Origin: Candidatus Dormiibacterota bacterium
GTDB taxonomy: Bacteria; Chloroflexota; Dormibacteria; CF-121
Assembly (NCBI GenBank): GCA_035716185.1
Contig: DASTJZ010000075.1
Span: forward strand, 59,467-123,466
DNA length: 64,000 bases
Direction of reading: 5' to 3'
The notes beneath the pieces were generated by a model, which was not told the DNA's origin, made no database searches, and worked only from the letters and a program-made list of their open reading frames with translations. Position numbers and translations under genes: made by a program. Shown piece by piece: positions 48,203-61,740 of the stretch; within the stretch, counting starts at the first letter, position 1; each line of letters opens with the position of its first letter.

Positions 48203-50377
<2,175 letters not shown>

Positions 50378-53272: not shown

Positions 53273-54411
53273 TGCTCAAGTCGGATTTTCTGAAGGCGCT
53301 CGACCAGGTCCAGGAGGAGAAGGGGATCTCCAAGCAATCGCTGCTGACCCTGATGGAAACCGCGCTGGCCACCGCCTACCGCCGCGCCTTCAACCCGCCG
53401 GAGAGCATTCGCGTACATGTCGATCCGGATACCGCCCAGATCGCCATCTTCGGCCGGCGGCGCGTGGTCGAGACGGTGCAGGACCCGGCCACCGAAATCA
53501 CCCTGGATGAGGCGCGGCAGCTAGGCCAGGCCTCGATGGGTGATCTCGTTGACGTGCCGCTGCCGACCGAGGATTTCGCCCGGCTGGCGGCGCAGATCAG
53601 CAAGCAGGTCGTCTTCCAGCGGCTGCGCGATGCCGAAAAGGACCAGGTCCTCAAGGACGTGCTCGAGCACAAGGGCGAGATGGTCAGCGGGATCGTCGAA
53701 CGCATCGTCGAACGGCCGGATGGCCACACTATCTACCTCGAGCTGGGCAAGGCCGAAGGTGTGCTGCCGCCGGAGGAACAGATTCCCGACGAGACGATTC
53801 GCGTTGGCCAGCATCTCAAGGTCCTGCTGCTCGAGGAGCGCAAACGGGCCCGCGGTGCCCAGGTCGTCGTCTCCCGGGCGCACAAAGCGCTGGTCCGGCG
53901 CCTTCTCGAGTTCGAGATTCCGGAGCTGCAATCGGGGGCGGTGGTGATCCGGGCCCTGGCGCGCGAACCCGGTGTACGCACCAAGGTGGCGGTGTCGGCG
54001 AAGCAGGATGGCATCGATCCGGTGGGCGCCTGCGTCGGCCCGCGCGGCGTCCGCATCCGCAGCGTCGTCGGTGAGCTGGGCGCGGAGCGAGTGGACATCA
54101 TCCCCTGGGCGGATGATCCCGGCCAGCTGGTGGCCAATGCACTCAGCCCGGCGCAGGTCCTCAGCGTCGACATCGATCGCGAGTCGCGGACCGCGACCGC
54201 GCACGTTCCCGAAAACCAGCTCTCACTGGCGATCGGCAAAGACGGGCAAAACGCCCGGCTTGCTGCCAAGCTGACCGGCTGGCGGATCGACATCAAGCCA
54301 ACGGTTGAGGAGAGCCCTCACCCCAAGCCTCCCCCGGAGGGGGACGGAGCAGTGGTGGCCGCTTCCGACGGGGCGGAGGGAATGAAGGAGGAGTCAGGCG
54401 GCGCCCACTGA
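53272..54411 (+). CDS. nusA: Transcription termination/antitermination factor NusA (short form) with a Pro/Gly-rich C-terminal tail
   Basis: TGATG junction. N-domain, S1 and KH domains (...GACVGPRGVRIRSVVGELG..., ...LAIGKDGQNARLAAKLTGWRIDI...). Tail ...ESPHPKPPPEGDGAVVAASDGAEGMKEESGGAH. Confidence 0.9.
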   Translation: MLKSDFLKALDQVQEEKGISKQSLLTLMETALATAYRRAFNPPESIRVHVDPDTAQIAIFGRRRVVETVQDPATEITLDEARQLGQASMGDLVDVPLPTEDFARLAAQISKQVVFQRLRDAEKDQVLKDVLEHKGEMVSGIVERIVERPDGHTIYLELGKAEGVLPPEEQIPDETIRVGQHLKVLLLEERKRARGAQVVVSRAHKALVRRLLEFEIPELQSGAVVIRALAREPGVRTKVAVSAKQDGIDPVGACVGPRGVRIRSVVGELGAERVDIIPWADDPGQLVANALSPAQVLSVDIDRESRTATAHVPENQLSLAIGKDGQNARLAAKLTGWRIDIKPTVEESPHPKPPPEGDGAVVAASDGAEGMKEESGGAH

Positions 54412-59882: not shown

Positions 59883-60808
59883 CGGCGGTCAGCTTCGGAT
59901 TTCCGGCGGCCCGCTTGATCGGACCGGCGTATCTGACGATCGGGACCTTCGACGGGGTGCACAAAGGCCATCAGGCGCTGCTGAAGCCCTTGATCGCGGG
60001 AGCGCGCCAGGCTGGCGCCGCCAGCGTGCTGGTCACCTTCGAACCGCATCCTCGGTGCGTGCTGGATCCGAATCATTGTCCGGCCAGCCTGACGACGCTC
60101 GACGAGAAGGCCTGGCTCCTCAGCCAGGCTGGCCTGGATTACGTGATCGTCATCCCCTTCACAGCCCAGGTCGCCGCCCTGAGCCCGGTGGTGTTCATCC
60201 AGCGCATCAGCCGCGGCATGCAGCTGCAGCACGTGATCACGGGCGAGGACTTCCGTTTCGGTCAGGGCCGGCGGGGGGACCCTGCCCTCCTTCGCCGTCT
60301 GGGCCAGCGCCAGGGTTTCACTGTCGAGGTCATCCCCAAGCTGACGCGTGCACGCGAACCGGTGAGCAGCTCGCGGATCCGACGACTGGTCCTGCTCGGG
60401 CAGATGCGCGCCGCTGCCCAGCTCCTCAGCCGCGACTACCTGTTTCGATCCGTCGTCGAGCATGGGGCCAAACGCGGTCGCGAGCTCGGCTTTCCGACCG
60501 CCAACCTCCGGATCGCCCCGAACAAGCTCGTCCCGGCAAGCGGCGTGTACGCCGCCTGGGTCGAGCTGAATGGTGATCGCAAGATGGGAGCGCTAAGCGT
60601 CGGCTATCGGCCCACCTTCGGCGCCCATGACCTCACGGTTGAAGTCTTCATCCTGGATTTCAGTGGTGACCTCTATGACCAGACCCTCGCCGTATGGTTT
60701 GTTCAGCGGCTGCGCGGCGAGAAGCGGTTTGCCACCGTTCCGGCATTGCAGCAGCAGATGACGCGCGATGTGGAGAACGCGAAACGGATCCTGACCGGCG
60801 CCCACTGA
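59879..60808 (+). CDS. ribF: Bifunctional riboflavin kinase / FMN adenylyltransferase
   Basis: ATGA overlap with truB. ...LTIGTFDGVHKGHQALL... ...GFPTANL... Confidence 0.9.
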   Translation: MTAVSFGFPAARLIGPAYLTIGTFDGVHKGHQALLKPLIAGARQAGAASVLVTFEPHPRCVLDPNHCPASLTTLDEKAWLLSQAGLDYVIVIPFTAQVAALSPVVFIQRISRGMQLQHVITGEDFRFGQGRRGDPALLRRLGQRQGFTVEVIPKLTRAREPVSSSRIRRLVLLGQMRAAAQLLSRDYLFRSVVEHGAKRGRELGFPTANLRIAPNKLVPASGVYAAWVELNGDRKMGALSVGYRPTFGAHDLTVEVFILDFSGDLYDQTLAVWFVQRLRGEKRFATVPALQQQMTRDVENAKRILTGAH

Positions 60809-61740
60809 TCATCGTCAACCCGGTGGCCGGAGGAGGACGAGCCCGCCCGTTCTGGGAGCGCTGCGCTGAGCAATGCCGCATGGCCAACATCGAGGTCGAA
60901 GTCTTCGAGACCCGACGCCGCGGTGACGCCGCGGCGCGAGCCGCCGAGGCCGGCGACCGCCTGGTCATTTCCGTCGGCGGGGACGGCACCGCGCACGAGG
61001 TCGTCAATGGGTTGCTCTCGAATCAACCCCCTCCCCGTCCCTCCCCACAAGGGGGAGGGAGAGACCGTCCACGCTTTGGGGCGCTGCTCCGCGGCGGCAC
61101 CGCCGGCGACCTGGCGCGGAGCGTGCCCAGTCCACGCCGGCCAGAGGATGTCCCGGCCTGGCTGGCGACCAACCGCTGGCGACCGATTGATGCGGGCCGG
61201 CTCGAAACCTCCGCCGGTGCGAGCTTTTTCATCAATGCGGCCGACGCAGGCATCGGCGCCGATGTGGTTCGCCGTGCCGCCCGTGGACCCGCCTGGGCCG
61301 GGGGCACCGCCAACTTTCTCGCCGGCGCGGTGATCAGCCTCATCACCCATCAAAACGATGCTGTCACCATGCGGCTCGACGGTGGACCGGCGGCGGGCCG
61401 TCGGGTGCGCACGATTGCCGTGTCGAACGGAGTCTATCTCGGAGGCGGCATGCGCATCGCCCCGAGCGCGCGAATGGACGACGGTCTGCTTGATGTGGTG
61501 ACGATCGCGGACATCGGGCGACTGAAGGGCATCGTCAGCCTGCCGCTACTGTATCGGGGAACGCACGGCCGGCTACGCGAGGTCGAATTCGCCCAGGCCC
61601 GTCGGGTTGAGATCGACGCCGACCACCCGGTGGGTGTCGAGGCCGACGGCGAACTGGTCGGCACCACGCCGGCGGTATTCGAAATCGTGCCTGGGGCGCT
61701 CCAGGTTATCGATTGGCAACCGTCGGGTATACTCTCGTAG
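60805..61740 (+). CDS. Diacylglycerol-kinase catalytic-domain protein (YegS/BmrU-like lipid kinase); probable CTG/ATC start at a TGATC junction
   Basis: (L)IIVNPVAGGGRARPF...LVISVGGDGTAHEVVNGL...; contains the in-frame insert ...SNQPPPRPSPQGGGRDRPRF... encoded by the C-box/G-box hairpin. Confidence 0.75.
   Translation: MIIVNPVAGGGRARPFWERCAEQCRMANIEVEVFETRRRGDAAARAAEAGDRLVISVGGDGTAHEVVNGLLSNQPPPRPSPQGGGRDRPRFGALLRGGTAGDLARSVPSPRRPEDVPAWLATNRWRPIDAGRLETSAGASFFINAADAGIGADVVRRAARGPAWAGGTANFLAGAVISLITHQNDAVTMRLDGGPAAGRRVRTIAVSNGVYLGGGMRIAPSARMDDGLLDVVTIADIGRLKGIVSLPLLYRGTHGRLREVEFAQARRVEIDADHPVGVEADGELVGTTPAVFEIVPGALQVIDWQPSGILS

Follow-up and report, generated by a model that had tools for sequence, protein, structure and literature searches.

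To our knowledge, the BoxC/PIT motifs have been known for about 30 years with no agreed function or mode of spread. These motifs, for which BoxC, PIT (potential intrastrand triplex) element and TM(ECO) are equivalent names, occur in E. coli and other Proteobacteria (Hoyne/Maher 2000, 2002, via Holder et al. 2015, PMC4666352). The E. coli copies are reported to be always intergenic; the triplex was not detected by in vivo footprinting, earlier tests saw no promoter or terminator activity and no effect on the polymerase, and no link was found between the triplex motif and mobile elements (Holder et al., PMC4666352). Other described systems that bear on the present locus are the HPG1/HPG2 G-quadruplex-hairpin-duplex switch motifs of E. 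coli (Kaplan et al. 2016, PMC5100583), the recurrent PQS of the Methanomicrobiaceae, which are a mirror-image archaeal form (PMC8044849), and the Rickettsia palindromic elements (RPEs; Ogata et al. 2000, 2002, summarised in PMC10969869).

We analysed a window (the whole stretch of DNA under study) of 64 kb with a GC content of 64%, derived from a member of the Chloroflexota. It contains three copies of a C-box/G-box element (two intact, one decayed), all within ORFs with Pfam support, the third of which lies in the dagK gene. Copy number and coding fraction are those of these 64 kb, by which alone the host genome is represented; the GC skew of the window carried no information on the direction of replication.

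The dagK element and the enlarged kinase loop

The host gene encodes a lipid kinase: the ORF 60694..61740 matches the Pfam models DAGK_cat (2.6e-20) and YegS_C (2.4e-37), the kinase has 852 homologues (the best 82-93% identical), and the synteny truB-ribF-dagK-rpsO-pnp is conserved. The 5' end of the gene is uncertain because the conserved LIIVNP strand has no canonical start codon before it. The initial annotation had placed the element in frame inside a YegS-like kinase, and the translation in the frame of this ORF, SNQPPPRPSPQGGGRDRPRF / QPPPRPSPQGGGRD, together with the two domain matches, bears this out. The GC-rich element itself, CCCCCTCCCCGTCCCTCCCCACAAGGGGGAGGGAGAG, spans 61027-61063; the end at 61061 given earlier is an error, as the 37 nt of the string run to 61063. 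The features are as follows:

60805..61740, plus strand: YegS/BmrU-family lipid (diacylglycerol-type) kinase gene with Pfam DAGK_cat and YegS_C domains, host of the third copy
61018..61074, plus strand: codons of the enlarged loop, SNQPPPRPSPQGGGRDRPR, 19 aa as against 9 aa in element-free alleles
61027..61036, plus strand: C-box 1, CCCCCTCCCC, found by repeat search and pattern match
61038..61046, plus strand: C-box 2, the 5' arm of the hairpin, TCCCTCCCC, 100% complementary to the G-box by repeat search
61047..61051, plus strand: hairpin loop ACAAG, the same in the window allele and the related alleles L001 and L004
61052..61060, plus strand: G-box, the 3' arm of the hairpin, GGGGAGGGA, followed by the family-typical AG
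61027..61060, minus (template) strand: whole three-part motif, TCCCTCCCC-CTTGT-GGGGAGGGA-C-GGGGAGGGGG
49218..49254, plus strand: queA copy in the last queA codons (13 protein letters), with a 10-bp stem and 9/9 triads
54313..54350, plus strand: decayed nusA copy in the C-terminal tail, encoding ESPHPKPPPEGDG, with a 6-bp stem and 5/6 triads

The perfect 9-bp stem and the duplicated C-box of the earlier description were both recovered by the repeat search: the arms at 61038-61046 and 61052-61060 are 9 nt each, 100% complementary and separated by a 5-nt spacer, and the upstream C-box (61029-36) is likewise complementary to 61052-59. Read on the minus strand, the element displays the order Y arm TCCCTCCCC, loop CTTGT, R arm GGGGAGGGA, C and RH tract GGGGAGGGGG, the last being C-box 1 in the form of a mirror-repeat third tract. 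This is the architecture of the triplex motif, with Y arm, loop, R arm, loop and mirror RH tract on one strand (class II) and G.GC and A(T).AT triads in register, of which eight of the nine are canonical. The GGGGAGGGGG tract is predicted to supply the reverse-Hoogsteen strand in a class II purine triplex as well as G-tracts 3-4 in a quadruplex. The minus-strand G-tracts GGGG-A-GGG-AC-GGGG-A-GGGGG constitute a potential three-tetrad quadruplex and, with four G3+ tracts, loops of 1-7 nt and a 5' C-rich tract (TCCCTCCCC) complementary to two of them, display the layout of a G-quadruplex-hairpin switch. ViennaRNA with DNA parameters gave -22.8 kcal/mol for the G4 on this strand versus -10.8 kcal/mol for the hairpin; the formation of a triplex or G4 by the dagK copy is a prediction.

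The hairpin of the corresponding RNA has an MFE of -21 kcal/mol, with a z-score of only -1.4 to -1.8 against dinucleotide shuffles. We dropped folding energy as evidence (z-scores against shuffles from -1.1 to -2.5, not significant), since good folding is to be expected of any sequence that has C-runs and G-runs; significance therefore rests on the recurrence of the pattern. In this respect, CCCTCCCC-N2-12-GGGGAGGG matches twice in the 64-kb window (49229 and 61039) versus 0.00 expected from 100 shuffles, and the three-part minus-strand pattern also matches twice (61028-61059 and 49218-49252, both on the minus strand) versus 0.00 expected. Together with the decayed nusA copy, these matches uphold the view of the dagK element as the third copy of a repeat. 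The other two copies lie beyond the conserved domains of their hosts: the Queuosine_synth domain of queA ends at residue 339 of 359 (Pfam), and the Pfam domains of NusA stop upstream of the nusA copy. The GTG start of tgt, at 49265, follows the G-box of the queA copy at a distance of 10-13 nt. The queA and nusA copies share one reading register and, as had been noted, the dagK copy is read in another.

By sequence comparison, the long kinase loop is a real insertion, the loop being 10-12 residues shorter in sampled homologues and solved structures. An equally long loop in homologues, which would have spoken against an insertion, was sought; in its place, the loop was found to have 9 residues in 30/30 sampled homologues (≤79% identity) and three closer alleles, versus 19 in the window. 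Likewise, the GGDGT-to-GTxxD spacing is 19-27 residues in 37 metagenome homologues versus 35 in the window. In the solved BmrU/DAGK structures 3T5P and 3S40, the gap at this site is 12 residues long. A metagenome scan for closer dagK alleles recovered only relatives of ≤74% identity, all without the insert. The insert had been put at 15 aa; the element amounts to about 13-14 codons and overlaps former loop codons, and the net gain is 10 codons (30 nt), which preserves the frame and adds about ten Pro/Gly residues, the exact limits of these 30 nt being ambiguous within 61018..61074. Its position after the GGDGT motif stands, but it does not mark the junction with the C-terminal β-sandwich: it lies inside DAGK_cat, after the helix downstream of GGDGT and before the strand that leads into GTAGD. 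In the AF2 model of the kinase (mean pLDDT 86.3), helix 60-72 is followed by coil 73-89 and strand 90-94; the coil of the insert has 10-residue pLDDT blocks of 68 and 64 and falls below 50 at residues 83-85, so that the loop is predicted to be disordered. From the low pLDDT and the topology, the insert would be surface-exposed.

Unstable alleles and a widespread family

We compared the DNA of nine related alleles (77-91% nucleotide identity). Close relatives differ in the state of the insert, which may be intact, decayed, shortened or absent, and the distribution of these states is at odds with the gene tree. In an NJ tree with several weakly supported nodes (24-67%), the insert-free alleles L130, L005 and L129 fall among insert carriers, and one gain plus three losses is as parsimonious as four independent gains. 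L129 retains an exact G-box (GGGGGAGGGAGA, 12 nt) with no C-boxes, L002 is missing 9 nt, and the element and its stem are decayed in L003 and L004. The 9-bp stem is intact in the window, L001 and L128; each allele was folded separately, as run-length indels shift L128 and L003 relative to the window stem. Two sequence types, one with N1=T and the loop ACAAG, the other with N1=A, CGCAAG and longer runs, each occur in two clades and are distributed against the gene tree; the L128 copy is as similar to the window queA copy (36/41 positions) as to its sister allele (33/41). The core of the dagK element is far more conserved than synonymous sites: its 25 nt are identical at 25/25 positions between the window and L001 and at 24/25 between the window and L004, whereas four-fold sites in the same genes are 45-57% identical (P ~1e-5 to 1e-7 for the core excess versus the four-fold rate). 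The same C-box 2 is kept in two reading frames (PSPQ and TLPRK); therefore, selection on the protein cannot account for the conservation of C-box 2.

A pattern with 24 fixed bases recovered at least 120 loci in the contigs of 185,579 species genomes, with Pseudomonadota, Cyanobacteria, Planctomycetota, Bacteroidota, Chloroflexota, Nitrospirota, Actinomycetota and Desulfobacterota among the matches listed. Positions that the pattern does not fix are biased as well: among the 138 family members listed, N1 is A 92 times, T 40 times, G 6 times and never C, NN is purine-purine in 116, and the arm is followed by the dinucleotide AG in 102. Reverse-Hoogsteen triads of the A(T).AT type demand this A/T preference at N1. 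We rejected a pyrimidine-motif triplex, formed on the plus strand or in the mRNA, as the rationale of the family: the N1=T of the window copy would allow it, whereas the N1=A of 92 of the 138 listed members does not fit. Family copies occur in both orientations and in unrelated genes; each frame is stop-free in 89-97% of the 138 members listed, and all six frames are in 92. Copies in frame elsewhere, with Pfam domains flanking or surrounding them, were found in MetH, PBP1, PFL, UvrA (two copies), PolA and GlnE, and among the matches listed at low-GC loci (GC ≤0.56), 6 of 29 copies are in frame in Pfam-supported genes. Searches with Rfam at the gathering threshold gave no match in 8 loci with 17 copies, and an all-against-all ORF comparison in 120 of the at least 120 loci revealed no shared transposase-like family. 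Neither the ORFs of the 120 loci nor the aligned copies yielded a mobilising enzyme, a target-site duplication or another insertion mechanism; a CCGTCC direct repeat in the window (61035 and 61065, 30 nt apart), considered as a target-site duplication, is absent in relatives.

Origin and maintenance of the insert

We consider it likely that the dagK copy represents a short, dispersed BoxC/PIT/triplex-motif-type repeat, tolerated, unstable and RPE-like, and that a YegS-type kinase acquired it as coding sequence in the ancestor of a small soil Chloroflexota clade. The repeat consists of a polypyrimidine-polypurine hairpin and a third, mirror-repeat tract. The kinase presumably tolerates it: the element is usually stop-free in each frame, would supply a flexible Pro/Gly-rich peptide in every frame, and would be seated at the distal end of the helix starting at GGDGT, away from the catalytic cleft. 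When single-stranded, the template strand may fold as a hairpin, purine-motif triplex or G-quadruplex, and such folding could promote polymerase slippage, deletion and copy-correction from other copies, which together would explain the in-frame run-length changes, the allele losses and the strong nucleotide conservation of the core. We infer no catalytic or regulatory role for the insert, which is probably neutral for the kinase; the hairpin in the mRNA and the PPP motif that it encodes would be by-products that may slow translation locally. Several points weigh against this reading: the loci compared yielded no insertion mechanism, relatives lack the CCGTCC direct repeat, the triplex of the E. 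coli element was not detected in vivo, the strong core conservation could also mean a selected function, and one gain with three losses is not more parsimonious than four gains.

In an alternative that we regard as rather doubtful, though not negligible, the loop would be a hotspot with several independent entries, or repeated overwriting, in different lineages in place of one ancestral gain followed by losses. The interleaving of carriers and non-carriers on the gene tree with its equal parsimony, the presence of each sequence type in two different clades, and the closeness of the L128 copy to the family consensus and to the window queA copy all speak for it. Against this, the exact 12-nt G-box that L129 retains without the rest of the element most plausibly reflects a partial deletion, and hence a real loss in at least one case; the window, L001 and L004 have in common both their register and the loop ACAAG, a part that varies elsewhere, and three independent insertions of one variant at one codon are unlikely; and the two types can interconvert via +1/-1 slippage in the C and G runs.

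A further alternative, which appears unlikely, is that the element is kept for its nucleic-acid structure, either as a pause site for transcription or replication (a template-strand G4 or triplex) or because an mRNA hairpin and a polyproline stall tune mRNA stability or the local speed of translation; the peptide would then be incidental. Consistent with this, the core, including third codon positions and the loop ACAAG, is conserved in three clades far beyond synonymous expectation, the stem persists in the window, L001 and L128, C-box 2 survives in two frames, the G-box of the queA copy coincides with the likely ribosome-binding site of tgt, and in vitro switching between hairpin, triplex and G4 has been published for such sequences (PMC4666352, PMC5100583, PMC8044849). 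However, the element is lost (L130, L005, L129), shortened (L002) or stem-decayed (L003, L004) in genes that remain intact, earlier tests of the PIT elements of E. coli are reported to have found no promoter or terminator activity and no in vivo polymerase effect, with no triplex detected by in vivo footprinting (PMC4666352), the family occurs in both orientations in unrelated genes, and copy-correction by other genomic copies could equally account for the conservation. FtsK KOPS (GGGNAGGG), Chi-like, terminator, DGR-IMH and SD-sequestration functions were likewise rejected for the dagK copy, which has no T-run and no downstream start and belongs to a family found in both orientations and unrelated contexts. 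Finally, an ordinary lineage-specific expansion of a Pro/Gly linker, with the palindrome and the similarity arising by coincidence or GC-rich compositional bias, would fit a genome of 64% GC, with its C- and G-rich Pro and Gly codons, and a hairpin energy not significantly better than that of shuffled sequence, but is highly improbable given the two occurrences of the three-part pattern versus 0.00 in shuffles, the recurrence of 24 fixed bases in at least 120 loci of unrelated phyla with extra shared unforced positions, and the reading of the copies in different frames with conserved third codon positions.

Beyond the kinase, we would suggest, tentatively and as something we rather doubt, that the GGGGAGGG-type triplex/quadruplex repeat may be pan-bacterial, spreading without a linked transposase and regularly landing in frame in essential genes (DagK, MetH, PolA, UvrA, PBP1, PFL, GlnE), with copies kept alike by conversion or re-insertion. 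The same 24-base core is present in housekeeping genes of unrelated phyla, and the element accounts for odd Pro/Gly-rich loops and C-terminal tails in the annotation of GC-rich genomes. The alleles form a natural series for testing whether structures of this kind give rise to slippage, deletion and gene conversion, whether selection acts on them, and how proteins absorb them.

Comparison with described repeats

Like REP/BIME elements and MITEs, the dagK element belongs to a class of short, GC-rich, hairpin-forming dispersed repeats, and MITEs also occur occasionally in frame in genes. However, REPs are species-specific, whereas the triplex-type core is common to several phyla; moreover, the aligned copies have no GTAG/CGTC tag, TIR or target-site duplication, and no RAYT/IS-like ORF family was found in 120 of the at least 120 loci. 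With RPEs it shares the in-frame occurrence of a palindromic repeat in unrelated housekeeping genes, a fold-compatible peptide and presence or absence among close relatives, as seen in the polymorphic 10-codon gain within a low-pLDDT coil. RPEs differ in being ~100-150 bp long, AT-rich and confined to Rickettsia, with a conserved peptide, whereas the dagK element is ~37 nt long, made of C/G runs and read in several frames without a conserved peptide, within a family that crosses phyla. Hence, it works like an RPE but belongs to no RPE family.

Its resemblance to HPG1/HPG2 lies in four short-looped G-tracts with a C-rich tract complementary to two of them, which sets hairpin against quadruplex; as in the bacterial form, the C tract lies 5' of the PQS. 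In contrast, HPG1/HPG2 and the Methanomicrobiaceae PQS are found in flanking or intergenic positions only, and their loops are A/GA, TTA or CC, and T/GA, as opposed to A, AC and A in the present variant, whose quadruplex is predicted.

The closest correspondence is with BoxC/PIT: both have the same three-part order on the G-rich strand, a class II purine-motif intrastrand triplex, a length of ~35-40 nt, many dispersed copies (three in the window and at least 120 loci overall), no linked mobility genes, and hypervariable loci with small deletions. The initial annotation was right to see a C-box/G-box repeat but did not recognise this kinship with BoxC/PIT/triplex motifs (PMC4666352, PMC5100583). 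The differences concern the arms, which are GGGGAGGG / GGGG(A/T)GGGG and not GGGNGAGGG; the host, a member of the Chloroflexota, with the variant present in at least eight phyla; and the location, as all three window copies lie in coding sequence whereas those of E. coli are intergenic. A triplex-architecture variant that is in frame, polymorphic and conserved in its core well beyond synonymous sites thus occurs inside a coding sequence, where BoxC/PIT had been called strictly intergenic. The published TM(ECO) pattern, CCCTCNCCC-N3-6-GGGNGAGGG-N3-GGGNGAGGG (Holder et al. 2015), has no match in the window, and the arms of the dagK element are CCCTCCCC/GGGGAGGG; judged by its sequence, it is so a variant of the described BoxC/PIT/TM(ECO)/"G-quadruplex-hairpin switch" family and not TM(ECO) itself.

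A C-box/G-box element in a predicted disordered loop of a lipid kinase

Positions 61027-61063 of the window (CCCCCTCCCCGTCCCTCCCCACAAGGGGGAGGGAGAG) fall within ORF 60694..61740, which has Pfam matches to DAGK_cat and YegS_C, and encode, in its frame, the peptide SNQPPPRPSPQGGGRDRPRF. This gene (hereinafter dagK) belongs to the conserved block truB-ribF-dagK-rpsO-pnp, and its best named homologue comes from a Chloroflexota MAG. In a repeat search of the window, we recovered two 9-nt arms (61038-61046 and 61052-61060), complementary throughout and spaced by 5 nt, and found C-box 1 (61029-61036) to be likewise complementary to the G-box, bearing out both the 9-bp stem and the duplicated C-box of the initial annotation. 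As the predicted folding energy (-21 kcal/mol) is equalled by shuffled C/G-run sequence (z about -1.4 to -1.8), the case for a real feature is made by recurrence of the pattern rather than by energy: the CCCTCCCC-N2-12-GGGGAGGG hairpin has 2 matches in 64 kb versus 0.00 expected from shuffles. The window contains three copies, each ordered as C-box 1, a two-base spacer, C-box 2, a loop, and the G-box, all within coding sequences:

queA copy, 49218-49254: last codons of queA; 10-bp stem
nusA copy, 54313-54350: C-terminal tail of nusA; decayed
dagK copy, 61027-61063: within the kinase gene

At 49244-49268, the queA-copy G-box (GGGGGAGGGAG), which is also the 3′ arm of the 10-bp hairpin, lies 10-13 nt upstream of the tgt start GTG (49265), a spacing that makes it likely to be the ribosome-binding site of tgt. 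This start is overlapped by the queA stop TGA (49266-68), and the Pfam TGT match begins at residue 11. queA additionally has a lone G-rich tract, GGGTGGGGGAGGGG, at 48405-48420 without a C-box partner.

In an alignment of 40 kinase sequences, the NGLL-to-FGALL distance is 18-19 residues in the window and five close relatives (homologues P0001-P0004 and P0034), and nine residues in 30/30 sampled homologues at ≤79% identity and in three closer alleles (P0005, P0028, P0033). The GGDGT-to-GTxxD spacing is 35 residues in the window versus 19-27 in 37 metagenome homologues, and the solved BmrU/DAGK structures (3T5P, 3S40, 4WRR) show a 12-residue gap at this site when aligned. Since these loops are all shorter, the possibility that homologues generally possess an equally long loop falls away. 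Structure modeling with AlphaFold2 (mean pLDDT 86.3), also proposed at the outset, predicted a helix at 60-72 (TAHEVVNGLL), a coil at 73-89 corresponding to the insert (pLDDT 68 and 64 in 10-residue blocks, <50 at 83-85), and a strand at 90-94. The dagK copy has thus added 30 nt, in frame, to a loop predicted to be disordered. The initial annotation is correct in its observation and main interpretation, including the in-frame insertion; its size of 15 aa reduces to a net gain of 10 codons, and its site, formerly placed between the GGDG motif and the C-terminal domain, lies inside the catalytic domain rather than at the domain junction. A direct repeat, CCGTCC (61035-61040 and 61065-61070), has its units 30 nt apart, exactly the net insertion size; as a trace of insertion it was rejected, being absent from related alleles and probably a chance occurrence.

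Instability and core conservation among dagK alleles

We recovered the DNA of nine related dagK alleles and computed a neighbor-joining tree from 297 codons outside the loop. It groups (L003,(L130,window)) with 92% and 83% support, (L005,(L002,L001)) with 67% and 56%, and (L128,L004) with 100%, with L129 separate and L007 as outgroup. The element is present in the window, L001, L002, L003, L004, and L128, and the non-carriers L130, L005, and L129 are interleaved with these carriers. L129 retains an exact G-box (GGGGGAGGGAGA) with the C-boxes gone, a state best read as partial deletion; L002 is shorter by 9 nt; and, upon folding, the 9-bp stem is kept in the window, L001, and L128 and weakened in L003 and L004. 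These alleles establish instability of the element at dagK, in line with the hypervariability reported for E. coli TM loci (PMC4666352). In L130, the window's sister allele without the insert (L130:3044-3092), the nine-residue loop includes window 61032-61041 (TCCCCGTCCC) in reverse-complement form (GGGACGGGGA); instead of an empty site, this may be a leftover of the element in inverted orientation.

The carriers display two sequence types, each found in two different clades: type 1 has N1=T and the loop ACAAG, and type 2 has N1=A, CGCAAG, and one extra C and one extra G, so that it is read in another frame (peptide PPTPTLPRKGGGR). The L128 copy is as close to the window queA copy (36/41 positions) as it is to its sister allele (33/41). 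The 25-nt core (C-box 2 to AGAG) is identical between the window and L001 (25/25) and nearly so with L004 (24/25), whereas four-fold degenerate sites of the same genes are just 45-57% identical (P about 1e-5 to 1e-7 versus the four-fold rate; 0.008-0.03 versus whole-gene identity). The core is therefore conserved at the nucleotide level.

The same alleles bear on the dagK start. Ahead of the conserved first strand LIIVNP there is no ATG, GTG, or TTG at the ribF/dagK junction (60796-60830, and its equivalents in L001-L005, L129, and L130), and the ribF stop overlaps this strand, at CTGATC in the window and at CTCATAATC or CTAATC in relatives. The gene-caller start, GTG at 60823, would cut off the strand and is not conserved (GTA in L003, GTC in L129). 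Together, these sequence features suggest that dagK starts at a non-canonical codon (CTG, ATC, or ATA), is translated by reinitiation after ribF, or involves a frameshift.

Distribution across bacteria

Searched with CCCCNCCCCNNCCCTCCCC-N2-12-GGGGAGGG (24 fixed bases), 185,579 species genomes yielded at least 120 loci, and the matches listed come from Pseudomonadota, Cyanobacteria, Planctomycetota, Bacteroidota, Chloroflexota, Nitrospirota, Actinomycetota, and Desulfobacterota. Even positions that the pattern does not specify are biased among the 138 copies in these listed matches: N1 is mostly A (92 copies), otherwise T (40) or G (6), and in no case C; both bases of NN are purines in 116, and AG directly follows the 3′ arm in 102. 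Their core is stop-free per frame in 89-97% of copies and in all six frames in 92/138, which explains the tolerance of frame-preserving copies. Among listed loci with GC ≤0.56, where long ORFs are reliable, 6/29 copies are in frame in Pfam-supported genes (domains on both sides or around); a seventh comes from a locus of higher GC:

Prevotella MetH: linker between pterin-binding and B12-binding domains
Desulfamplus PBP1
Bacteroidales pyruvate formate-lyase-like enzyme
Prolixibacteraceae UvrA: two copies
Rickettsiales DNA polymerase I: linker between exonuclease domains
Planctomycetota GlnE: the seventh copy; interdomain linker; locus GC 0.63

Most of these copies (loci L044, L045, L051, L083, L024, and L035) are in interdomain linkers, and they occur in both orientations. 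No transposase-like neighbor was found in the 120 loci listed, nor any consistent target-site duplication among the dagK alleles compared. Individual loci show further arrangements: a full palindrome with both 20-nt arms paired (L042:718-763); tandem units with conserved flanks, spaced ~140-200 nt (Variovorax L043:7501-7841, also L098 and L033); and, in Microcoleus, longer inverted repeats that have the element at their tip (L011, L023, L034). In five loci from different taxa (L036, L060, L068, L078, L108) the element adjoins a homologous ORF of ~1000 aa, lying just upstream of its start in L036; this may be a conserved position. What merits follow-up is this wider pattern, with one short triplex/quadruplex repeat entering the housekeeping genes of bacteria in general.

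Architecture, proposed mechanism, and relationship to known repeats

The minus strand of the dagK copy reads TCCCTCCCC-CTTGT-GGGGAGGGA-C-GGGGAGGGGG, which corresponds to the class II purine motif and gives 8 canonical triads (9/9 in the queA copy); the preference for A/T at N1 fits the requirement of A(T).AT reverse-Hoogsteen triads. On the same strand, loops of A, AC, and A separate four G-tracts, and the predicted quadruplex is more stable than the hairpin (-22.8 versus -10.8 kcal/mol, DNA parameters). We propose that the template strand, when single-stranded, would fold into one of these predicted structures (hairpin, triplex, or G4) and thereby promote slippage, deletion, and conversion. 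The allele pattern would reflect slippage in homopolymer runs with compensating frameshifts, combined with either re-insertion or correction by other copies in the genome. Alternatively, selection on nucleic-acid structure may lie behind the core conservation. The insert would be a tolerated passenger encoding a flexible Pro/Gly-rich peptide. Located at the far end of the helix that starts with GGDGT, it would lie away from the catalytic cleft, and it is probably neutral for the kinase; translation may be locally slower at the mRNA hairpin and the encoded PPP motif.

The same architecture typifies the E. coli BoxC repeat, rediscovered as the PIT (potential intrastrand triplex) element and characterized as TM(ECO) (Holder et al., 2015; PMC4666352); the HPG1/HPG2 "G-quadruplex-hairpin-duplex switch" is a later description of it (Kaplan et al., 2016; PMC5100583), and Methanomicrobiaceae have a mirror-image form (PMC8044849). 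No Rfam family matches the element at the gathering threshold across eight loci with 17 copies, and the published E. coli TM pattern has no match in the window because the arms here are GGGGAGGG, not GGGNGAGGG. By architecture, the dagK element is a sequence variant of the BoxC/PIT/TM(ECO) family. Whereas the E. coli copies are reported to be always intergenic (PMC4666352; PMC5100583), those in the window are all coding. In residing in frame within genes it behaves like the Rickettsia palindromic elements (PMC10969869), but belongs to none of their families. Thus, the repeat family, itself functionally unexplained, is known; the sequence variant, the host phylum, and the previously unreported in-frame coding position are new.
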